From sequence record PQ478073.1: a stretch of 64,000 bases of DNA; one strand, given 5' to 3'. The notes beneath the pieces are model-generated. The model had not been told where the DNA came from. It made no database searches and worked only from the letters and a program-made list of their open reading frames with translations. The DNA is from a phage. A program made the translations under genes and the position numbers. Shown one piece after another: positions 42,236 to 64,000 of the stretch; position 1 is the first letter of the stretch, and every line of letters begins with the position of its first letter.

Positions 42236-42292
42236 AACATTGATGGTACAAGGATTGTACCTATTGGATTTAAACATGGAGAGTAAAATACA

Positions 42293-43132
42293 ATGACAAA
42301 TAGACCAAAGCGTAAAAAGTATCTCAATAATGCTGATTTACTTCGTGAAATACAAAAAAGTAAAATTTCATATTGCTGGTTATTAGACAAATCATATAGT
42401 ATGTATGATTATATTGTTTTTCATGAGTCAGAAATTACTGCTGAGTTACTAGAAAAAGCTAAGGCAGCACGAATTAAACGACTGAACAATGAAATGCTTG
42501 ATAGTATTCGTGAAAAGGAAAATATGAGTGCTAAAAAAGCTAAAGAATATGCAGATGAACACAATTTAGTTATCACTGACGTTCCAATTGATGAAGTTGT
42601 TATTCGTGTTATTACAGATGAACATATTCCACCAGATACTAGAGTTAACTTTGAACCATTCAAGCATTATATTGTAGATAATGAAGGTATTCTCTATGAA
42701 GTTTGTCGTTCTCACTGGAAAGGCGACCTTGAAACTGGTGAATTCAGTACTGTTCATGGTAAAATTACAAATGAACTTGGGAAGATGTTCATTAAACTTG
42801 CAGAGGAAATCTCACACAAATCTAATTACAGAAACTATACATACTTAGATGAAATGATGGGTGATGCAAGAATACAATTAGTTAAAAACGCACTTCTCTT
42901 TAAAGAGAGCATTCTTTATAAAAAAGATAAACCAGCAGTTCAGCTAAATCCTTTCTCTTACTATACATCATTCGTAAACAATAGTTTTCGTTCTATATTG
43001 AATAGTGAGAAAAATGTTCGAAATATACGTGATGATTTACTTGAAATGCATGGCTTTACGCCATCACATACACGTCAAATTGAAATTGAATTGAACATGA
43101 TTGAAAGGAAAAATGAAGATGGCTCTGTTTGA
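42293..43132 (+). CDS. 55: late-transcription sigma factor, gp55-like (279 aa)
   Basis: N-terminus KRKKYLNNADLLREIQKSK matches T4 gp55 (KPKYNYVNNKELLQAI); lies directly upstream of gp47/gp46 as in T4; ~90 aa longer than T4 gp55. Confidence 0.65.
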   Translation: MTNRPKRKKYLNNADLLREIQKSKISYCWLLDKSYSMYDYIVFHESEITAELLEKAKAARIKRLNNEMLDSIREKENMSAKKAKEYADEHNLVITDVPIDEVVIRVITDEHIPPDTRVNFEPFKHYIVDNEGILYEVCRSHWKGDLETGEFSTVHGKITNELGKMFIKLAEEISHKSNYRNYTYLDEMMGDARIQLVKNALLFKESILYKKDKPAVQLNPFSYYTSFVNNSFRSILNSEKNVRNIRDDLLEMHGFTPSHTRQIEIELNMIERKNEDGSV

Positions 43133-55952: not shown

Positions 55953-57128
55953 ATGTCACAACTACTAAATGAATCCAAATGGGTAGCAGTAAAAGAGAAA
56001 CTAGTTGAAGGTCTACAGGGTACTCGTAAGTCTGTAATGGAAACTGTTCTTGATAACCATCGTAAAGTTATGCTAACTGAATCCGCAACTTCTGGTGCAA
56101 CTACCGCTGGTAACATCGCTACTCTAAACAAAGTGATTCTACCAATTATGCGTCGTGTAATGCCAACCGTTATTGCTAACGAAATCATCGGTGTTCAACC
56201 AATGACTGGTCCAGTTGGTCAGATCCACACCCTACGTGTGCAATATGCTGATAACGCACCTGGTGTTATCGCTGGTGAAGAAATGCTTTCTCCATACAAA
56301 ATCGCTAAATCCTACTCTGGTGATCTAAATGCGGATAATAGCAACCCACAAGCTGCTCCTACTAGCCAACTAGAAGGTACTATGGGTCGTCGCGTTAACA
56401 TCCGTATTCTACGTGAAACTGTTGAAGCGAAATCTCGTCGTCTATCTGCACGTTGGACTGTTGAATCTGCACAAGATGCTCAATCCCAACATGGTGTTGA
56501 CGTTGAAGCAGAACTAATGGCTGCAATCGCTCAAGAAGTTACCGTAGAAATCGACCAAGAGCTACTAAGCCGTCTACGTGCACTACCTGGTGCTGCTGCT
56601 GTAACTTATGACCAATCTAAAGTTACTGGTGTTGCAACCTTCGTTGGTGATGAGCACGCTGCTCTAGCAACTCTAATTAACCGTCAAGCAAACGAAGTTG
56701 CTCGTCGTACTAAGCGTGGTGCTGCAAACTGGGCTGTTGTTTCCCCAACTGCACTAACCATTCTACAATCTGCTACTACTTCTAGCTTTGCACGTACCAC
56801 TGAAGGTACTTTCGAAGCACCAACTAACGTTAAGTTTGTAGGTACTCTAAACAGCACTATGCGTATTTTTGTTGATACTTATGCAAGTGATGCAGAAGAT
56901 ATTCTAATTGGTTATAAAGGTAATGCAGAAACTGATGCTGGTGTGTTCTATTGCCCATACATCCCACTAATGGCTTCCGGTACTGTAATGGACCCTAACA
57001 CTGGGGAATTGGTCACAACTTTCTTAACCAGGTATGGTTATGTTCAGTTGACCGATAGCACCAGTTCACTAGGTAACGCTGCGGACTACTACAGCAAAAT
57101 CGCTATCAAAAACGTTACTTTCATGTAA
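55953..57128 (+). CDS. 23: major capsid protein, gp23-like (391 aa)
   Basis: RRVMPTVIANEIIGVQPMTGPVGQIHTLRVQYA vs T4 gp23 RRAIPNLIAFDICGVQPMNSPTGQVFALRAVYG; VEAKSRRLSARWTVESAQD vs IEAKSRQLKAAYSIELAQD; YKGNAETDAGVFYCPYIPL vs YKGPNEMDAGIYYAPYVAL. About 130 aa shorter than T4 gp23. Confidence 0.92.
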   Translation: MSQLLNESKWVAVKEKLVEGLQGTRKSVMETVLDNHRKVMLTESATSGATTAGNIATLNKVILPIMRRVMPTVIANEIIGVQPMTGPVGQIHTLRVQYADNAPGVIAGEEMLSPYKIAKSYSGDLNADNSNPQAAPTSQLEGTMGRRVNIRILRETVEAKSRRLSARWTVESAQDAQSQHGVDVEAELMAAIAQEVTVEIDQELLSRLRALPGAAAVTYDQSKVTGVATFVGDEHAALATLINRQANEVARRTKRGAANWAVVSPTALTILQSATTSSFARTTEGTFEAPTNVKFVGTLNSTMRIFVDTYASDAEDILIGYKGNAETDAGVFYCPYIPLMASGTVMDPNTGELVTTFLTRYGYVQLTDSTSSLGNAADYYSKIAIKNVTFM

Positions 57129-57174
57129 TTGTAATAGATTTAAAAGATTTAATCAAAAAAAAATAAAAACAATA

Positions 57175-57204
57175 GGGACTCTTCGGAGTCCCTTTTCTTT
57201 TTAT
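57175..57204 (+). terminator. strong intrinsic terminator after capsid gene (UUCG tetraloop)
   Basis: GGGACTC-ttcg-GAGTCCC followed by TTTTCTTTTTATT. Confidence 0.85.
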
Positions 57205-57214
57205 TAAAAAACCC

Positions 57215-57243
57215 TTGACACAATGTTCTGGAATGTATATAAT
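57215..57243 (+). promoter_or_regulatory. consensus sigma70 promoter (TTGACA-17-TATAAT)
   Basis: -35 TTGACA 57215-57220, 17-nt spacer, -10 TATAAT 57238-57243; ATG 57276 lies ~26 nt downstream of the predicted start site. Confidence 0.7.
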
Positions 57244-57275: not shown

Positions 57276-58373
57276 ATGCCAAACGTAAGTATCAACAAAG
57301 AAGAGTTTATCAGCAAAATGACTGCTAAGTATGGTGAATTTGATTTCAGTACTTTAGTATTCAAAGCAAGTAAGACAACAGTGAAATGTAACAAGTGTGG
57401 AAAAGAAAACACCAAACCTGCACTTCGTCACATTGCATGTACATGTGCATCATGTTATTCAAACATGTCACAACGTTCAAACAACGACACATTCATCAGT
57501 ACTATAGAAACTAAATTTGGAAAAGATAAATTCAAATTTGATAAACTAAATTACACTAATGCTATATCAAAAGTAACAATTTTCTGCACAGATGAAGATC
57601 ACAATGATTACTTTGAAATTACACCCAATAAATTTCTTTCTGGTAAAGGATGCCCCGTATGTAATAAAAATGAAGCATACAGTACTGAAGAGTTCAAAGA
57701 AAAAGTAAAAGATAATTATGGTGATTTATTGGATTTAACTAACACGGTGTATGTAAATCAAAAAACTAAAGTAACTGTGTATTGTAACGCAGGTAATCAT
57801 GAATGGACAGTTGATCCAAAAACTTTACTTGTTGGTAAGACTGGATGTGGTACATGCTCCGGTAAAGGCGGTCGAAGTACTGAACGTTTCATTGAACTTG
57901 TGTCGCCTATCCATAACCATAAGTATGATTATAGCTTGGTGGATTACAAGACTAGTGATGAACATGTGGATATTATTTGTCCTGAACATGGTGTCTTTAA
58001 ACAAATACCCAAATCTCATATGGCAGGAAGAGGATGTCCATCATGTGGTGAGTATGGTTATCAACCATCAAAGCCTGGATATTTCTATGTACAAAAACTA
58101 TCTAATAACTCAAAAGTCGTTTACAAATACGGAATTACCGGAGACATGAAGAGACGAATTCATGAACAAAGTCGCAATTCTGAGTTCGAGCATGAATTAC
58201 TGGTAGAACGTTACTTTGAGGATGGTAATAAACCATTATTATTGGAAAAGTTTATCAAGCAATACATTGAAAGTGGTGTTGTAAGTACTGAAGAGTTACC
58301 GTCAGGATTTACTGAAACATTTGATGCTAAGTATCTTGAAAGTGTTTTAGAAATTGTAAATACTTTTAAGTAA
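57276..58373 (+). CDS. tandem zinc-ribbon protein with C-terminal GIY-YIG-like (T5orf172-type) domain (365 aa)
   Basis: Four repeats of C/H...CxxC modules (CNKCGKEN...CTCASC; CTDEDH...CPVC; CNAGNH...CGTC; CPEHG...CPSC); C-terminus GYFYVQK...VYKYGITGDMKRRIHEQ... matches the GIY...YIG..R pattern (~58077-58373). Confidence 0.55.
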   Translation: MPNVSINKEEFISKMTAKYGEFDFSTLVFKASKTTVKCNKCGKENTKPALRHIACTCASCYSNMSQRSNNDTFISTIETKFGKDKFKFDKLNYTNAISKVTIFCTDEDHNDYFEITPNKFLSGKGCPVCNKNEAYSTEEFKEKVKDNYGDLLDLTNTVYVNQKTKVTVYCNAGNHEWTVDPKTLLVGKTGCGTCSGKGGRSTERFIELVSPIHNHKYDYSLVDYKTSDEHVDIICPEHGVFKQIPKSHMAGRGCPSCGEYGYQPSKPGYFYVQKLSNNSKVVYKYGITGDMKRRIHEQSRNSEFEHELLVERYFEDGNKPLLLEKFIKQYIESGVVSTEELPSGFTETFDAKYLESVLEIVNTFK

Positions 58374-58396
58374 ACAATCTAAAGGAGTTGACACGG

Positions 58397-58747
58397 ATGT
58401 TAACTGTATACAAATTTAACAAAGAAGAGTACTTAAAGAGTCAGTACTCAAATATAGAAATAAATGTTCCTTATGGTACGTTAGTTGGATATGATGAAGC
58501 CACTGAAACATTGTATTATAATGATGATAGATTGGATTATAGTTTAGATTCATTCATTGAAGATATACTTAATACACATACTGAAGATATGTTGTATGAA
58601 GAATACATAGACCATTATAGAGAACGTATGTCGGTGCTGCATTCTGATGCTCCTGTACTAAACATAGCACAAGAACCATCGGAATTTCAGCCACATAATC
58701 CTTTTCAACGTTTAATTGATATTGGTTTAAAATTCACTATTAGTTGA
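58397..58747 (+). CDS. hypothetical acidic protein (116 aa from ATG 58397)
   Basis: Track start 58388 is TTG; ATG 58397 lies 9 nt after an AAAGGAG SD; product unknown. Confidence 0.45.
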   Translation: MLTVYKFNKEEYLKSQYSNIEINVPYGTLVGYDEATETLYYNDDRLDYSLDSFIEDILNTHTEDMLYEEYIDHYRERMSVLHSDAPVLNIAQEPSEFQPHNPFQRLIDIGLKFTIS

Positions 58748-58750
58748 TAG

Positions 58751-58779
58751 ATAAATATCTCCATATTAATGATGGAGAT
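58751..58779 (+). promoter_or_regulatory. ATAAATATCT late-promoter-like motif followed by an 8-bp inverted repeat that includes the SD
   Basis: ATAAATA 58751-58757; ATCTCCAT-N7-ATGGAGAT (58757-58764, 58772-58779) with GGAG inside the 3' arm. Confidence 0.35.
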
Positions 58780-58786
58780 TGAATCT

Positions 58787-59095
58787 ATGTCACAGATATG
58801 TTATGTTATAATAAACTCTGCATGGCCTGACTATGTTAAGATTGGTTTCACTTCTAAATCTGAAATGACAGAGCGTTTGAGAACGTATCAGACAGCTACC
58901 CCGTTTCGTGATTTTGAAGTTTATCATGAAGTTCACTTTGAAGACGCACGTTTAGCTGAAAAAGAGATACATAAAAGGCTTAAACAAATGAATGCAACTA
59001 GACAACCAAACACAGAGTGGTTTAAAATGTCTAAAAAGATAGCAGCAAACATCATTGATTCTGTGTGGGATGATATGGATAACGACTTGCTATAG
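58787..59095 (+). CDS. stand-alone GIY-YIG-like (T5orf172-type) domain protein (102 aa from ATG 58787)
   Basis: ICYVIINSAWPDYVKIGFT...ERLRTY...EIHKRL...EWF matches the T5orf172/GIY-YIG-like pattern. Start choice (58769, 58772 or 58787) is uncertain. Confidence 0.55.
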   Translation: MSQICYVIINSAWPDYVKIGFTSKSEMTERLRTYQTATPFRDFEVYHEVHFEDARLAEKEIHKRLKQMNATRQPNTEWFKMSKKIAANIIDSVWDDMDNDLL

Positions 59096-59097
59096 GA

Positions 59098-59104
59098 ATA
59101 AATA
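59098..59104 (+). promoter_or_regulatory. candidate late promoter (AATAAATAT) for fibre gene
   Basis: ATAAATA ~32 nt upstream of ATG 59136. Confidence 0.3.
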
Positions 59105-59135
59105 TAGTATATATTAATCATAAAGGGATTTATAC

Positions 59136-60746
59136 ATGAGCATAAGTTTTAATAACCCATTGGATACAATGACCAGTACTGGTGCTAATGGATCTTTAGA
59201 ACTAATAGTGCTTGGTGGTACACCAACTAACCCAAGACCTATTCGTTTTAATTCGTCATCAGTTATTATACCAGTACAAACGTTACCTACTGGTGAACAA
59301 GGTGCAATGGTTTTTGATCGAAGCGAATTAGTTTTGAAGTATCATAACGGTACAAGTTGGATTGCAGTATATGATACTGATACTATTTTGGAACCAATTA
59401 GAATTTCATTAGATGAAGTAAACAGAAAATTAAATTTAAAAGTAGAAAGTGTAACATACAGTAGCAGTACTGTTCCTAGTGCAAGTATTAGTGGAACAAA
59501 CTTAAACATTGTATTCCCTACTGCTTCTAGTGGTGGTTCTGGACCAACTGGTCTTTACACTTCACTTAAACCTGGTGCTATTACACAATATTCATTGACT
59601 TCTGGTCAATCTGTTGCTAGTATACGTGAACAAATGTCAGGGCAATCGAATGGACAAAGTGGACGAAACGGTTCACAAGGTGCTCCGTGGAAAACGTCTG
59701 ACGGTTGGTGTTTTGCTGATGGTATGTGGTGGCAATGGGAGGGGGAAAATGGTACAATTACCAAACAAGTACCAAACCTTAACCAAAACGCGTATTTAAA
59801 AGGTATAACAACATCAGGTGTAACTAAAACTGATAGTGTTATTGGTAGTAGTGGTAACATTAGTGGAACTGTATTGAGTGTTGCCCAGTTACCATCACAC
59901 TCATTTAGTTTTAGTGGAACCACTGGTGCTGCTGGTCGTCATGGTCATAGTCAAGCACTAAAAGGTATGGACCGTAGTGGTCTAAATGCGTTAACTTCAA
60001 GTAATGATAACGGTATACCAACTGTAATCAATAACATTAACGAAGCACCAGACCACATTCACTCATTTAGTGGAAACACTAACACACTTGGTGGAAACCA
60101 ACCACACTATCATGGTATTAGCAACATTGATGTGGAACACTTTAACGTTGCATACCTATATAACATTGCTGAATCTAACGTCGCATTGAGTGAAAAAGTT
60201 GCAAACACTCGTTATGTACTAAAAACTGGTGATACAATGACTGGTTCATTGACTATTGCAAACAGTGCGTCAATTAAGTCAAATGATACATCATTAGTTC
60301 TATATTTCCGTAACGCAAGCGGTGGTGAGCGTGCGGCAGTGTATCATAACTCTTCAAATAATACATTGAGATTACGTTCCGGTGGAGCAGAAGTTACTGT
60401 AAACTCTTCTGGTACTTTAGCTGCTCCATCATTAACTGTTTCTAACAACTCAGCTACTGTTGGTGGTAAAAATATTGTTCGTTCAATTAACGGTACTGCT
60501 GCTGATGCTAGTGGCAACGTTACTTTGCAAATTAGTACTAATAACGTACAAAGTATTCGTTTGAGTGCACGTATTGAAACAAGTAAAATACCTGATTCTT
60601 CATGGACATATACACCAGAAGGTGCATTTATGGATGGCGTATGGATTTCTGTTAATGGTAGTTCAGGCACTCACTTAGAACGAATTAGTTATCGCTATGT
60701 TCAAATGCAAATAAATGGTAACTGGGAAACAGTACGTCAACAATAA
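59136..60746 (+). CDS. tail fibre protein with His-x-His metal-site-like motifs (536 aa)
   Basis: S/T/G/N-rich; HSFSFSGTTGAAGRHGHS and HIHSFSGNTNTLGGNQPHYHG resemble the HxH ion-binding repeats of T4 gp12/gp37 receptor-binding tips; followed by a Tfa-type chaperone gene. Confidence 0.6.
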   Translation: MSISFNNPLDTMTSTGANGSLELIVLGGTPTNPRPIRFNSSSVIIPVQTLPTGEQGAMVFDRSELVLKYHNGTSWIAVYDTDTILEPIRISLDEVNRKLNLKVESVTYSSSTVPSASISGTNLNIVFPTASSGGSGPTGLYTSLKPGAITQYSLTSGQSVASIREQMSGQSNGQSGRNGSQGAPWKTSDGWCFADGMWWQWEGENGTITKQVPNLNQNAYLKGITTSGVTKTDSVIGSSGNISGTVLSVAQLPSHSFSFSGTTGAAGRHGHSQALKGMDRSGLNALTSSNDNGIPTVINNINEAPDHIHSFSGNTNTLGGNQPHYHGISNIDVEHFNVAYLYNIAESNVALSEKVANTRYVLKTGDTMTGSLTIANSASIKSNDTSLVLYFRNASGGERAAVYHNSSNNTLRLRSGGAEVTVNSSGTLAAPSLTVSNNSATVGGKNIVRSINGTAADASGNVTLQISTNNVQSIRLSARIETSKIPDSSWTYTPEGAFMDGVWISVNGSSGTHLERISYRYVQMQINGNWETVRQQ

Positions 60747-60756
60747 GGAATGTGTA

Positions 60757-61272
60757 ATGCAACTAACAAATTTTAAGATGTATGAAAAAGAAGGTGGTAA
60801 TCCTAATTCTTTGTATATGATGTCCGATGAAGGTATGGATTGGTATGAATCTCGTGAATTGTTTGACATTAATAAAGCAAAATTTATGTATGATATTAAC
60901 GGTTTAATTGTTTCAGCATCATATAACATTTATGATCTAGTACCTTTAGGTTTTAGTGTTTCTGAAATTGAATATGATGGTGATATTAACAAACTTTATG
61001 GTATGGTTTACGATGGAAATACTATTCATGACTATATTGAAACTAAAGAAGAAAAAATTGAACGCCTAAAAAATGAATTATCTAATTTGAAATACATTGC
61101 AATTCAAGAACTTGGACACTTAAAAACTGCTATGGATCTTGAGTTAGCAACTGATGAAGAAGCTGTATTGTTTGTAAAATTGAAAGATTATGTAACGCAA
61201 TTGAATTCAATCAAACCAGCAGACATGATTAAGAAAACATTTTCATTTCCAGTTAAACCGGAAAAAAAATGA
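60757..61272 (+). CDS. tail fibre assembly chaperone, Tfa/gp38-like (171 aa from ATG 60757)
   Basis: LKTAMDLELATDEEAVLFVKLKDYVTQLNSIKPAD resembles the Tfa C-terminal motif (...DLGMATDEE...WKKYRVLLNRVD...APD). Track start 60715 lies inside the fibre gene; ATG 60757 follows an AAGGA SD. Confidence 0.6.
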   Translation: MQLTNFKMYEKEGGNPNSLYMMSDEGMDWYESRELFDINKAKFMYDINGLIVSASYNIYDLVPLGFSVSEIEYDGDINKLYGMVYDGNTIHDYIETKEEKIERLKNELSNLKYIAIQELGHLKTAMDLELATDEEAVLFVKLKDYVTQLNSIKPADMIKKTFSFPVKPEKK

Positions 61273-61301
61273 GACAACACGTAAAGACGTGATACAATTA
61301 A

Positions 61302-61337
61302 GTCATCTCACCGATTGTGGTGAGGTGACATTTTTTT
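61302..61337 (+). terminator. intrinsic terminator after Tfa gene
   Basis: 11-bp stem (61302-61312 / 61319-61329, one G-U pair), loop GATTGT, then T7 run 61331-61337. Confidence 0.75.
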
Positions 61338-61362
61338 GAAAACACACATGGAGAAATACAAA

Positions 61363-61665
61363 ATGGCTAAATCTAAAAAAGAAGTTAAAGTTGAAATTCG
61401 TGATCTAAACGATGAACAACGTAAACGTCTCGGTGACGCACTTAACAACATTGTTGTACAACTAACTTTCATTGATGATACCAAAGCATCCTTATCTGAT
61501 TTTGTTTCTAGTGTTTCTGATGAACTTGGTATCGATGCATCTGATATCAAACAAGCTGCACAACGTATGTACAAAGGTGATTACTTTGACAAACAAAATA
61601 AACTCGATAATATCGAAACTATTCTTAGTGTTACTAATAATCTTCCACAAGCAGATGATTACTAA
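61363..61665 (+). CDS. hypothetical small protein (100 aa from ATG 61363)
   Basis: Track start 61336 is TTG inside the terminator T-run; ATG 61363 follows a GGAG SD at 9 nt; product unknown. Confidence 0.45.
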   Translation: MAKSKKEVKVEIRDLNDEQRKRLGDALNNIVVQLTFIDDTKASLSDFVSSVSDELGIDASDIKQAAQRMYKGDYFDKQNKLDNIETILSVTNNLPQADDY

Positions 61666-61687: not shown

Positions 61688-61715
61688 AGCCTCCAATGAC
61701 GGAGGCTTTCTTTTT
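61688..61715 (+). terminator. intrinsic terminator upstream of DNA polymerase gene
   Basis: AGCCTCC-aatgac-GGAGGCT hairpin followed by TTCTTTTT. Confidence 0.7.
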
Positions 61716-61744: not shown

Positions 61745-64000
61745 ATGTATATCGATGCTTATATGGAACGTAAACGTACTGGTGATATTCTTCATGTAGT
61801 TGAACGTAAGAATGGTAAACGTATTCTACGCGAATTAGATCCAGTATATGAATATTATGTTGAATCCCCACAAGGAACACATAAAACTGTTTATGGTACA
61901 ATGGCTAAACATTTTGAGTTTCAAACTCAAGCTCAAATGAATAAAAGTGTAGAGCAACACAAAAGTGAAGGTCTACGTATTTTTGAAAGTGATTGTAACA
62001 TTACATTTAAAACATTAGCTAAAGAATATATGGGAAAAGGTTCACCCGATTTGAACATCGTGTTCTTCGATATCGAGACTGATTTCCATAAGAAATTTGG
62101 TTATGCTCCACCATCAGACCCGTTTAACCGAGTAACCGCTATTTCTCTATATCAATCATGGACTGGAAAGGATTATGTACTTACTTTACCACCTGCTGAT
62201 ATGGAAATTTATGAAGCACAAGATATTGTTCGCCAACTAAATGAAGAAACAAACGATCCTAACAGTACTGTAATTTTATATACAGACGAAAAGGAAATGT
62301 TTATGGAATTCTTTAGTTTAATTGATGATTCTGATGTTATTTCAGGATGGAATAGTGAATTCTTTGATATTCCATATATGATCAATCGAACTAAAAAAAT
62401 CTTCAATGAAGCAACAACTGCTCGTTGGTGTTTATGGAATAAAAAACCAAATTCACGTGAAGCAGACAACTTTGGTAAAACTGTTCAAACATATGATCTG
62501 GTAGGTCGCGTCCATCTTGATTATTTGGCTTTGTATAAGAAACATGCTGGTCAAGTTGAACAATCTTATAAACTAGATTATATTGCTGAAAAAGTAACTA
62601 AAGAAAATAAAGTATCCTATGAAGGTTCATTGGATAAACTTTACAGAGAGGATTACATTACTTTCTTGCGTTATTCTAAACAGGATAGTATTCTTCTTAA
62701 AAAGATTGATGCTAAATGTGACTATATCAACCTACACAATCGACTTGCACACAAAGAATGTGTACTTATCAGTACAACAATGGGTTCAGTAGCACTAATC
62801 GACACTGCTATTATCAACTTAGCACATACTCGTGGTGAAGTTGTTTTCAACAAAGCACCGAAAGATGATCTTGAGTTTGATCCAGAAATGGAATATTATG
62901 GTGAAGATGGTGAAGAAGAAGATGAGAAAATTAGTGCAAAAGCAGCAGGTGCATGGGTACAAGATCCAGTACTAGGACTTGTAAGTGACCTTGGGTGTAC
63001 TGACTTTAACTCTCTTTACCCTACTGTTCTACGTACTTTGGGTATGAGTACTGAATGTATTCTTGGTCAATTACGTCAAGATTACACCGATGCGTATCTT
63101 GCAGCTAAAATCCAAGAACAGAAGAACAAATCTAAATCTAAATCATTTGAACCAGATTGGACTGCGGCATGGCATGGTTTATTTGCTGCTGTTGAATTTA
63201 CAATGGTTCATGAAAAGTCAGAAGAAACATTGATTGTTGATTTAGAAGATGGGAGTTCTTTTAAAGCAACGGGCAAAGAGCTATATGATATTATTTTTGC
63301 AGAAGATAGTACTATTGTACTTAGTGCAAACGGAACACTTTTTGATAAGTCTAAGTCTGGTGTAATTCCTGACATTCTAACTCAATGGTATTCTGAACGT
63401 AAAGCACAGCAAAAAATGGTCATTGACTACAAACATATGTATACTGATGGTTGGGAGTTTAATGGCTATGAAAAAGTTGAACCACTACTATCAAACTATA
63501 CCCCTGGTACAATGTTTAGAACTAATATTCATGATAATGATCCTGTATACTTACTTCGTAAAGAAATTGGTAAAGGACAGTGGGATGAAGTTGCTAAGTT
63601 GATTGTAGAAAACGGATTAGTACTAAAAGATGGTCGTATTTTCTGTCCTAAAGAAGAAAAAGATTACTTCAAACAACGTAGTGCTTTTTGGAAACAGAAC
63701 CAACAGATTCGTAAGATTCTTCTAAACAGTCTATATGGTGCACTATTGAACAAAGGTTCTCGTTTCTTTGACAAACGTTTAGGTCAATCTGTAACATTAA
63801 CTGGACGTTCTATGACCAAACATATGGCAAGTCGTATCAATGAAATTACTACTGGTGTATATAACCACCAAGGTGGTTCAGTAATTTATGGTGATACTGA
63901 CTCAGTTTACTTTAGTGTAACTCATTATCTGAAAGAACAAGGTATTCCATATAATCTATCTAAAGAAGAGATTGTTGATATGTATATTAAAATTGGTGAA
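61745..64000 (+). CDS. 43: B-family DNA polymerase, gp43-like, 3'-truncated by window edge (first 752 codons)
   Basis: Not in the ORF track because it has no stop within the window. Frame open from ATG 61745 to 64000. Exo I FFDIETD, Exo II ISGWNSEFFDIPYM, Exo III YSKQDSIL, motif A DFNSLYPT, KILLNSLYG, motif C VIYGDTDSVYF; each matches T4 gp43. Confidence 0.93.
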   Translation, partial: MYIDAYMERKRTGDILHVVERKNGKRILRELDPVYEYYVESPQGTHKTVYGTMAKHFEFQTQAQMNKSVEQHKSEGLRIFESDCNITFKTLAKEYMGKGSPDLNIVFFDIETDFHKKFGYAPPSDPFNRVTAISLYQSWTGKDYVLTLPPADMEIYEAQDIVRQLNEETNDPNSTVILYTDEKEMFMEFFSLIDDSDVISGWNSEFFDIPYMINRTKKIFNEATTARWCLWNKKPNSREADNFGKTVQTYDLVGRVHLDYLALYKKHAGQVEQSYKLDYIAEKVTKENKVSYEGSLDKLYREDYITFLRYSKQDSILLKKIDAKCDYINLHNRLAHKECVLISTTMGSVALIDTAIINLAHTRGEVVFNKAPKDDLEFDPEMEYYGEDGEEEDEKISAKAAGAWVQDPVLGLVSDLGCTDFNSLYPTVLRTLGMSTECILGQLRQDYTDAYLAAKIQEQKNKSKSKSFEPDWTAAWHGLFAAVEFTMVHEKSEETLIVDLEDGSSFKATGKELYDIIFAEDSTIVLSANGTLFDKSKSGVIPDILTQWYSERKAQQKMVIDYKHMYTDGWEFNGYEKVEPLLSNYTPGTMFRTNIHDNDPVYLLRKEIGKGQWDEVAKLIVENGLVLKDGRIFCPKEEKDYFKQRSAFWKQNQQIRKILLNSLYGALLNKGSRFFDKRLGQSVTLTGRSMTKHMASRINEITTGVYNHQGGSVIYGDTDSVYFSVTHYLKEQGIPYNLSKEEIVDMYIKIGE

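Follow-up and report, generated by a model that had tools for sequence, protein, structure and literature searches.

A conserved tail fibre gene with an exchanged tip-and-chaperone cassette in an Asteriusvirus jumbo coliphage

Introduction

Why do a tail fibre gene and a chaperone gene lie between the head genes and the DNA polymerase gene of a jumbo phage, and which part of this pair moves between phages? A preliminary description of the DNA studied here (the window, 64,000 nucleotides of sequence record PQ478073.1) had reported such a pair and suggested that it was acquired horizontally. The locus encodes a tail fibre and its assembly chaperone in an Asteriusvirus jumbo coliphage, a pair that has already been annotated. 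Very probably, the fibre is the baseplate fibre conserved in the clade of RaK2-like jumbo phages, and the chaperone is dedicated to its assembly. The features of the locus are listed in Table 1.

Table 1 Features of the fibre-chaperone locus (positions in the window)
Feature	Position	Strand	Basis or remark
Late-promoter-like motif AATAAATA, one mismatch to T4-type TATAAATA	59097..59104	+	32 nt 5' of fibre ATG
Tail fibre gene, 536 aa	59136..60746	+	ORF, PHROG 13229, GenBank orthologues
Conserved N-terminal region, aa 1-100, presumed baseplate attachment	59136..59435	+	Conservation
Internal Collar/Gp10_C-type module, aa ~185-345, holding the HxH motifs	59688..60170	+	hhalign
HxH codons	59940-59948, 60054-60062, 60105-60113	+	aa 269-271, 307-309, 324-326
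Conserved distal shaft, aa 346-440, and linker motif GKNIVRSINGTAADASGNVTL, aa ~443-463; left cassette edge	60171..60545	+	
Mu-gpS-type receptor-binding tip, aa 471-536, and stop codon	60546..60746	+	Foldseek, hhalign
Exchanged cassette, fibre from about aa 440 and whole chaperone gene	60450..61350	+	Sliding nucleotide and per-segment amino acid identity
Tail fibre assembly chaperone, 171 aa	60757..61272	+	Pfam, PHROG, JP4/121Q annotation
Intrinsic terminator, 12-bp stem (6 G-C pairs) then T run	61302..61336	+	Closes the fibre-chaperone unit

Identity and position of the gene pair

Escherichia phages JP4 and UB match the region 59000-61400 at 100% nucleotide identity over the 2.4 kb that was searched, and 121Q matches it at 98.8%. 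All three phages have the pair annotated as tail fibre and assembly protein (gp607 and gp608 in 121Q). The fibre described earlier as a 536-aa protein with HxH motifs is confirmed by its ORF, which encodes three of them. It matches PHROG 13229 ('tail fiber protein') over residues 1-536 (E=1.1e-273), and its orthologues include 121Q gp607, GAP32 gp254, CBB_260 and RaK2 gp098. A sequence search of the PDB with the fibre alone returned one chance match only (E=0.95), and a search with a profile of 58 fibre sequences returned none. Nothing of relevance came from scanning the fibre and three of its sub-ranges with Pfam and NCBIfam.

The location first proposed, between the head genes and the DNA polymerase and apart from the main fibre cluster, also holds. 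The major capsid gene ends at 57128 and is followed by three small genes (two nuclease-like, one unknown) before the fibre. Between the chaperone and the DNA polymerase gene lies one small gene; the polymerase gene starts at 61745 in the JP4 annotation and continues past the window end. A large fibre gene of 2129 aa and the baseplate genes are found at about 3.6-48.7 kb on the opposite strand, the large fibre gene being about 49 kb away from the pair. Asteriusvirus, Alcyoneusvirus (RaK2), Mimasvirus (GAP32, CBB), Eneladusvirus (fHe-Yen9-04, BF) and Salmonella phage 7t3 share one gene order: the capsid gene, small genes, the fibre, a chaperone in some cases, a small gene and the DNA polymerase. 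Identity over fibre aa 1-440 is 82-97% in close relatives (99% for the capsid protein) and 27-71% in other genera. On comparison of these genomes, the position of the fibre gene is ancestral to the phage group.

Architecture of the fibre

The first 100 residues are 96-97% identical in close relatives and 48-55% identical across genera, and they are modelled with a pLDDT of 67-89. Their role in attachment is presumed because of the fibre architecture and the baseplate location of RaK2 gp098.

The three HxH motifs account for 6 of the 11 histidines of the fibre and lie within 58 residues (aa 269-326). When the protein was shuffled 20,000 times, HxH occurred on average 0.21 times, and three or more motifs were reached with P=0.001. 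H324 and H326 are invariant among 121 homologues. The first motif of the series is degenerate in the window fibre (HSF, aa 255-257), and the glycine/serine pattern that flanks the motifs fits metal-binding modules. Within the 440 residues that are otherwise conserved, variation across genera is greatest in the loop at aa 272-305.

The nature of this region was seen in profile comparisons. With hhalign, the module matched P0150 (Collar 1.2e-24, Gp10_C 6.3e-8) over aa 200-326 with a probability of 97.7% (E=1.5e-12) and P0139 (Gp10_C 8.4e-20) with a probability of 97.2% (E=3.9e-11). The fibre-family profile aligned with residues 913-979 of T4 gp37 (E=1.6e-5) at a score of 46.7, whereas 100 shuffled gp37 tips scored 22.7 at most. 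T4 gp12, gp37 and gp10 carry Pfam Collar/Gp10_C domains. By profile comparison, the HxH region is a diverged module of the Collar/Gp10_C type and belongs to the domain class found in T4 gp12, gp10 and gp37. The family profile did not match T4 gp12 itself in hhalign (probability 0.2%). Pfam Collar (PF07484) and Gp10_C (PF21939) gave no match to the whole fibre at E<=0.1 or to aa 140-350 at E<=10, and none of the 58 homologues scanned matched either family at E<=0.01. Fold searches with the full-length fibre model returned no gp12 or gp37 match, and weak ones came only from a sub-model of aa 140-350.

The module is not C-terminal, as it occupies aa ~185-345 of 536 and about 190 more residues lie beyond it. 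The likeness to gp12/gp37 tips noted earlier is thus correct as to domain class, as the matches to gp37, P0150 and P0139 indicate, and wrong as to location, which is mid-protein. In most of the distant relatives, the module ends no more than about 10-45 residues before the C-terminus, but P0147 and P0140 carry internal copies. Two versions of the middle region exist, one with three HxH motifs and one with two, and each version is paired with all three main tip families. On the axis of a trimer, the motifs of the window fibre could build as many as three metal sites of six histidines each, like those in T4 gp37 and gp12.

The Collar-HxH module is C-terminal in T4 gp12 and gp37, and an internal copy may be hard to fit into a collinear trimer.

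In the distal shaft, aa 371-430 are modelled with a pLDDT of 88-90. The linker motif GKNIVRSINGTAADASGNVTL is also present in the Vequintavirinae fibres of 4MG, FENT2 and Hena1. Column identity is 0.67 at aa 441-460 and lower after that.

The fibre C-terminus resembles Mu gpS and shows no similarity to the gp12/gp37 tips. The best Foldseek match of the predicted structure was the Mu fibre-chaperone complex (5yvq_A, E=1.4e-5, probability 0.99), and hhalign aligned aa 472-536 with residues 441-500 of D108 gpS (E=1.2e-4, probability 55%). The tip signature (D/S)(V/I)RL... and R(P/Y)(I/V)Q..(I/L)NG.W is present, as it is in 4MG, FENT2 and Hena1, and linker motif and tip together share 37% identity over 118 aa with the C-terminus of the 4MG fibre (E=3e-18). 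Two receptor-binding-type modules in series on the 536-aa chain, an internal gp12/gp10/gp37-type Collar-HxH 'head' and a distal Mu-S-type tip, are a tentative reading of this architecture.

The chaperone gene and expression of the pair

The Tfa-type chaperone expected downstream of the fibre was recovered with three references. It scored 36.3 bits against Pfam Caudo_TAP (PF02413; cut-off 22.1, E=7.4e-9), the family of lambda Tfa, Mu gpU and P2 gpG, matched PHROG 136 (E=4.9e-37) and aligned over residues 15-147 with the solved Mu gpU (5yvq_B, E=3.5e-8). BLASTP against T4 gp38 gave no similarity. A chaperone gene directly 3' of the fibre is also found in D108, 4MG, FENT2 and Hena1.

The overlap of the two genes described earlier holds only for the longest ORF, which begins at ATG 60715 and shares 32 nt with the fibre. 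The family alignments start at residue 15 of this ORF. The GenBank annotations of JP4 and 121Q place the start at ATG 60757, 10 nt past the fibre stop, and a Shine-Dalgarno sequence (AAGGA, 60745-60749) that overlaps the fibre stop codon precedes this ATG. The chaperone most likely starts at 60757, and the genes would therefore be adjacent with no overlap.

A (T)ATAAATA motif is found at the site matching that of AATAAATA before the fibre gene in eight relatives, and the exact TATAAATA occurs there in RaK2 and fHe-Yen9-04. The annotation also includes a gene for a late sigma factor at 42292-43131. The motif may therefore be regarded as a putative late promoter. A scan for sigma-70 promoters found 23 sites compared with 29 expected from shuffled sequence. 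Since such sites are no commoner than in shuffled sequence, the perfect consensus site at 57215-57243 is the sole one given here. The fibre and chaperone genes would form a late bicistronic unit that runs from the promoter-like motif to the intrinsic terminator, and translation of the chaperone is probably coupled to that of the fibre. By analogy with Mu gpS-gpU (5YVQ), the chaperone would bind the tip and start trimerisation from the C-terminus.

Exchange of the tip and the chaperone

Sliding nucleotide identity between fEgEco12 and the window falls from 80-95% on either side to about 55-65% within 60450-61350. In WPEC5, the same stretch is replaced and the chaperone gene is absent. The 121 homologues include 86 with Mu-S-like, 22 with Gp53-like_C and 12 with Peptidase_S74 tips, and WPEC5 and RaK2 carry the Gp53-like_C tip at the same site. 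The Gp53-like_C tips of WPEC5 and RaK2 lack a Tfa-type gene after them, and so do the S74 tips of fHe-Yen9-04 and BF. A Mu-S-type tip and a Tfa-type chaperone are also adjacent in the Vequintavirinae 4MG, FENT2 and Hena1. Exchange of the pair as a unit had been proposed. Exchange is indeed seen, but on a sub-gene scale, from about aa 440 of the fibre to the end of the chaperone, and not for the whole fibre. Judging from these identity profiles, only the fibre tip and the chaperone are exchanged between relatives. Recombination would likely take place at the linker motif on the left and in the conserved region past the terminator on the right, and host range may evolve by replacement of this cassette.

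Comparison with known fibre systems

RaK2 gp098, which is identical in phiK64-1 (S2-8), is an orthologue with about 48% identity over aa 1-464. It shares the position between capsid and polymerase and the N-terminal, middle and distal-shaft regions, but is 595 aa long and has a Gp53-like_C tip, a middle region with two HxH motifs and no downstream chaperone gene. Gene products S and U of Mu and D108 (PDB 5YVQ, 8JU3) provide the best structural match, the tip motifs and a homologous chaperone directly downstream, whereas Mu gpS has neither HxH motifs nor a Collar module. In Mu, the tip is swapped by inversion of the G segment, which the window locus lacks. T4 gp12 is similar in length (527 aa, compared with 536 aa) and has the baseplate secondary-binding role proposed for the RaK2 orthologue, and the HxH spacing of the T4 gp37 needle aligns with that of the window fibre. 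The window chaperone, in contrast, is of the Mu-U/lambda-Tfa type and unrelated to T4 gp38. The short fibres of the Vequintavirinae (4MG gp044/gp043, FENT2, Hena1) share the linker motif, the Mu-S-type tip and a homologous chaperone of the same length, with 23% identity between the 4MG and window chaperones. Unlike the window fibre, they are 312-405 aa long, lack the Collar-HxH module and are encoded directly after the baseplate wedge genes.

Function in the virion

RaK2 gp098 is present in virions by mass spectrometry and is required for infection, and antiserum against it reduces plating efficiency (PMC10253068). Immunogold labelled the baseplate of contracted particles, and the protein was proposed to be a secondary receptor binder (PMC10253068). 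CBB_260 is a virion protein, detected with 11 peptides by mass spectrometry (PMC5259590). The available part of the phAPEC6 virion table lists nothing between gp215c and gp225c, where the fibre orthologue would be expected (PMC7247149), and the accessible portion of the JP4 mass-spectrometry supplement files contains no occurrence of the fibre or chaperone locus tags. By analogy with RaK2 gp098, the window fibre is most likely a secondary receptor protein for irreversible binding, like the T4 short fibre. The receptor role may not transfer, because the tip of RaK2 gp098 differs (Gp53-like_C).

Alternative interpretations

The placement of the pair had been taken as a sign of horizontal acquisition. 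Insertion of the whole fibre-chaperone module into its present site would fit its distance from the large fibre gene, its strand, which is opposite to that of the tail and baseplate genes, the nuclease-like genes directly upstream and the presence/absence polymorphism of one of them (57276-58373). The synteny check found the same site and neighbours in the four named genera and in Salmonella phage 7t3, which largely refutes this origin, and the identities of aa 1-440 within and across genera also speak against it. Furthermore, the GC content of the cassette (0.316) is within the spread of the window (0.348 +/- 0.029) and therefore no outlier. No close donor was found: the protein database returned close relatives only, and the phage collection outside the jumbo clade held nothing above about 42% identity for the tip or about 30% for the chaperone, the nearest matches being 35-42% and 23-30%, respectively. 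Acquisition of the whole module is barely credible, and an ancestral fibre with an exchanged tip is preferred. As for the HxH motifs, Tetart et al. reportedly described the 'His boxes' of T-even gp37 in 1998 as recombination linkers. The motifs might be inherited signatures that act mainly as conserved linkers and bind no metal in the window fibre, in line with the free combination of both middle regions with all three tip families and with the degenerate first motif. The invariance of H324 and H326 and the glycine/serine flanks favour metal binding, however, and linker and metal roles can coexist. A role as linkers without metal is very unlikely.

The place of the proteins in the particle can also be read differently. 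The fibre could be part of the visible tail fibres, or the distal part of a long fibre, and bind the primary receptor rather than act as a hidden secondary binder at the baseplate. Electron microscopy shows six short fibres below the baseplate in CBB (PMC5259590), phAPEC6 (PMC7247149) and fEgEco12. Those of CBB measure 28.6 nm, and a trimer of 536-aa chains could explain them. Asteriusvirus lacks the branched depolymerase fibres of RaK2, and roles may therefore differ, and Mu-S-type tips are primary lipopolysaccharide binders in Mu (PMC11915804). Nevertheless, the sole experimental localisation, that of RaK2 gp098, is at the baseplate, where the protein is accessible mainly after contraction, and the tail module encodes further fibre proteins that are much larger. 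Primary receptor binding by this fibre is unlikely, and a secondary role at the baseplate remains the preferred reading. As for the chaperone, it could stay bound to the tip and take part in host binding, as has been reported for Mu gp50; it shares homology with Mu gpU and varies together with the tip. The virion fibre of Mu is described as gp49 plus gp50, with the chaperone reported to stay on it (PMC11915804), and the same article cites a paper by North and Davidson (2021) whose title makes this claim. The orthologues of the window chaperone were, in contrast, undetected by mass spectrometry in virions: CBB_261 is absent from the CBB virion list (PMC5259590), and Gp220 of phAPEC6 was negative (PMC7247149). 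A tip-bound chaperone in the virion is distinctly unlikely here, and a chaperone that serves assembly is favoured.

Implications

The locus is a case of ordinary, well-understood fibre modularity and no new kind of system. The analysis adds the internal Collar/Gp10_C-type HxH module, the Mu-S-like true tip and a bounded exchange unit of tip and chaperone. If two receptor-binding-type modules do follow each other on the chain, the fibre would be folded back or kinked, as T4 gp12 is in the baseplate, or would have two sites for ligands. Its origin may lie in the addition of a second tip to an ancestral C-terminal one. The site would then be a natural three-way plug-in site at which the type of tip sets the folding strategy: a separate Tfa chaperone, none with Gp53-like_C, or the intramolecular chaperone of Peptidase_S74. 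For engineers who retarget Asteriusvirus or RaK2-like jumbo phages, the locus offers a cut site, and the natural variants provide three tip families tolerated on one scaffold.

Position of the fibre-chaperone pair

The locus is an annotated, ordinary fibre-chaperone pair. Over 59000-61400, it has 100% identity with Escherichia phages JP4 and UB and 98.8-99.9% with 121Q, PBECO4 and further jumbo coliphages of Asteriusvirus. The gene pair is already known, being annotated in 121Q as 'tail fiber protein' (gp607) and 'tail fiber assembly protein' (gp608) and likewise in JP4. The preliminary description had located it between the head genes and the DNA polymerase, and the gene order (see the table) proved this right. 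Tail and baseplate genes, including that of a 2129-aa fibre, occupy the minus strand at about 0.7-48.7 kb.

The same description took this placement as a sign of horizontal acquisition. A synteny comparison was made with RaK2 (Alcyoneusvirus), GAP32 and CBB (Mimasvirus), fHe-Yen9-04 and BF (Eneladusvirus), Salmonella phage 7t3, and the coliphages fEgEco12 and WPEC5. Fibre homologues at about 50% identity are found in all RaK2-like jumbo phages, and in every one examined the fibre gene lies between the capsid and polymerase genes with the same small neighbours. Residues 1-440 share 82-97% identity with those of fEgEco12 and WPEC5, two phages whose capsid protein is 99% identical, and 27-71% with those of other genera. 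GC content, checked for foreign origin, was unremarkable. The position of the fibre gene is ancestral to the group, and the acquisition argument from placement therefore fails.

Features of the locus and protein identity to phage fEgEco12
Feature	Position	Strand	Remark	Identity
Major capsid protein	55953-57128
Bidirectional terminator	57174-57193		after capsid gene
Perfect sigma-70 consensus promoter	57215-57243		TTGACA, 17 nt, TATAAT; upstream of endonuclease gene
Endonuclease	57276-58373
Unknown gene	58388-58747
Small T5orf172 protein	58769-59095
Fibre	59136-60746	+	536 aa
Fibre aa 1-100				96%
Fibre aa 101-250				87%
Fibre aa 251-345				91%
Fibre aa 346-440				82%
Fibre aa 441-470				63%
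Fibre tip, aa 471-536				58%
Chaperone	60757-61272			about 49%
Strong terminator	61302-61336		3' of chaperone gene
Small unknown protein	61363-61665
Downstream small protein				92%
DNA polymerase	from 61745		gene cut by window end

The fibre and the chaperone

A fibre followed by a Tfa-type chaperone, as previously described, is indeed present. PHROG 13229 ('tail fiber protein') matches the fibre end to end (E=1.1e-273), and the downstream product matches Pfam Caudo_TAP (36.3 bits, cut-off 22.1), PHROG 136 (E=4.9e-37) and the solved Mu chaperone gpU (5yvq_B, E=3.5e-8). On these similarities, the second protein is classed as a tail fibre assembly protein. The claimed overlap between the genes exists only for the longest form of the downstream ORF, which starts at 60715 and shares 32 nt with the fibre ORF. 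Because family alignments start at residue 15 of this form, GenBank records place the start at ATG 60757, and an AAGGA overlapping the fibre stop codon (60745-60749) precedes this ATG, the genes are most likely adjacent, 10 nt apart, and without overlap.

Exchange of the tip and the chaperone

Modular exchange of the fibre tip plus the chaperone is clear. Both flanks share 80-95% nucleotide identity with fEgEco12, as against about 55-65% over about 60450-61350, a stretch which comprises the fibre from about aa 440 and the entire chaperone gene and which is largely unalignable in WPEC5. Relatives carry other tips: Gp53-like_C (Pfam PF21882) in WPEC5 and RaK2, both devoid of the chaperone gene; Peptidase_S74, a self-cleaving intramolecular chaperone, in fHe-Yen9-04 (Pfam hit) and BF (by alignment); and yet another in 7t3, with a gene annotated as chaperone. 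The main three tip families among 121 homologues are window-like (86), Gp53-like_C (22) and Peptidase_S74 (12). The identity profiles and these tip swaps support the suggestion that fibre and chaperone travel together, but what travels is the tip with the chaperone rather than the entire gene pair. A tip and a chaperone of the window's types likewise lie side by side in the Vequintavirinae 4MG, FENT2 and Hena1, whose fibres have the same linker motif, GG(R/K)..VR.VNG..AD..GNVT, and a 37% identical tip. No recent donor is visible, with no tip outside the jumbo clade exceeding 42% identity and no chaperone exceeding 30%.

The chaperones of GAP32 (gp255, L004:7613-8026) and CBB (CBB_261, L005:7613-8026) have only 137 aa, and their genes share 8 nt with the fibre gene. 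GAP32 gp255 is 32% identical over 107 aa to the first two thirds of the window chaperone; since it covers the first 122 of 178 PHROG 136 positions, it is without the C-terminal third of that profile. Despite the Peptidase_S74 tip, the chaperone slot of Eneladusvirus holds a gene for 188 aa (fHe-Yen9-04 g254, L008:6635-7201; BF gp259, L017:5177-5743). Its product matched the C-terminal part of PHROG 26008, showed no Tfa similarity and is unrelated to the chaperone.

The actual fibre tip turned out to be Mu gpS-like. The best Foldseek match of the full-length fibre model (mean pLDDT 71.3; 88-90 for aa 371-430, 74-91 beyond) was the Mu fibre 5yvq_A (E=1.4e-5, probability 0.99), and hhalign aligned fibre aa 472-536 to the C-terminal 60 residues of D108 gpS (E=1.2e-4). 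Hence, Mu gpS-gpU rather than T4 gp37-gp38 is the nearest solved counterpart of the tip and chaperone. Unlike the window fibre, Mu gpS has no HxH motifs.

The internal HxH module

The HxH observation is real and non-random. Three motifs (aa 269-271, 307-309 and 324-326) use six of the eleven fibre histidines, at least three motifs arose in only 0.1% of shuffles of the fibre, and all 121 homologues retain H324 and H326. A Pfam search of the fibre gave no match for the HxH region, PDB sequence searches gave nothing meaningful, and hhalign of the fibre family profile found no match to T4 gp12. With T4 gp37, the profile aligned fibre aa 253-320 to residues 913-979 (E=1.6e-5), the needle part whose HxH motifs flank the terminal loop; the score was 46.7, whereas 100 shuffled gp37 tips averaged 14.7 and did not exceed 22.7. 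Fibre aa 140-350 served as the query for an exhaustive phmmer search of 1.84 billion representative proteins, which recovered the orthologues along with a number of short proteins, most of which have the module at their C-terminal end or close to it. Several of these short proteins carry Pfam Collar (1.2e-24, 2.1e-10) or Gp10_C (8.4e-20), domains found in T4 gp12 and gp37 and in gp10, respectively, and hhalign matched the family profile to two such proteins with probabilities of 97.7% and 97.2%. As the gp37 needle match and the Collar/Gp10_C link agree, the HxH stretch is, judged by sequence, a diverged member of the Collar-HxH tip class, and its motifs may bind metal. The proposed resemblance to T4 gp12/gp37 tips thus survives as class kinship, but the module lies mid-protein. 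This internal place of a module usually found at the end of a fibre is the sole mildly unusual point.

Two architectures of the HxH region (59880-60170, fibre aa ~250-345) occur among homologues, one with three motifs, as in the window, and one with two, P.HYHG.G first (RaK2, GAP32). The region is 27-32% identical across genera, its flanks 57-71%. Since both architectures combine with all three main families of tips, a second recombination-prone segment is suggested.

Expression and neighbouring genes

The motif AATAAATA is found 32 nt upstream of the fibre ATG, and the equivalent site in eight relatives carries the consensus of T4 late promoters, (T)ATAAATA. The window also has an annotated late sigma factor gene. 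Fibre and chaperone genes most likely form a late bicistronic unit. Exact TATAAATA sites number six in the window (minus strand: 36158, 42197, 46847, 48733; plus strand: 54691, 55900), fewer than the shuffle expectation of 11. All six are intergenic, just 5' of genes, five of them head, baseplate or virion structural genes and one for endonuclease VII; the pattern fits a T4-type late promoter avoided inside genes.

Upstream, the endonuclease gene encodes a 365-aa protein (PHROG 681, zinc-finger and T5orf172-like). It is missing from fEgEco12, and the shorter, partly related WPEC5 version is 100% identical over 57903-58052 (150 nt), with flanks at 91-94%. The endonuclease gene looks like a mobile homing-endonuclease insertion. 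Directly 5' of the fibre gene lies the gene for a 108-aa T5orf172/GIY-YIG-like protein. The same site holds a ~103-aa gene in GAP32, CBB, fHe-Yen9-04, BF, 7t3, fEgEco12 and WPEC5, annotated as T5orf172 or GIY-YIG in GAP32, CBB, BF and fEgEco12; such a conserved site is unexpected for a free-standing nuclease. Between the chaperone and polymerase genes, a 100-aa protein (61363-61665) conserved in all relatives shows a match to PHROG 12534 and a weak one (E=2e-7) to PHROG 639 'transcriptional regulator'; its gene has its own terminator (61688-61707).

Function of the fibre

The RaK2 orthologue gp098 was found in virions, immunogold labelled it at the baseplate, mainly of contracted particles, and antiserum to its C-terminal part lowered plating efficiency; the authors proposed that it serves as a secondary receptor-binding protein once the capsule depolymerase has acted (PMC10253068). 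CBB_260 was detected in virions (11 peptides, 24% coverage), and the chaperone CBB_261 is absent from the virion protein list (PMC5259590). In phAPEC6 (MK817115), mass spectrometry did not detect the chaperone Gp220, and in the excerpt of the virion table entries pass from gp215c to gp225c with none where the fibre is expected (PMC7247149). The fibre orthologue there, presumably Gp221, apparently went undetected according to that excerpt, in contrast to CBB and RaK2. Six short fibres were seen under the baseplate of CBB, phAPEC6 and fEgEco12. By analogy with these relatives, the window fibre would be a baseplate fibre for secondary or irreversible binding, which the chaperone would help to fold, probably without being retained in the particle.
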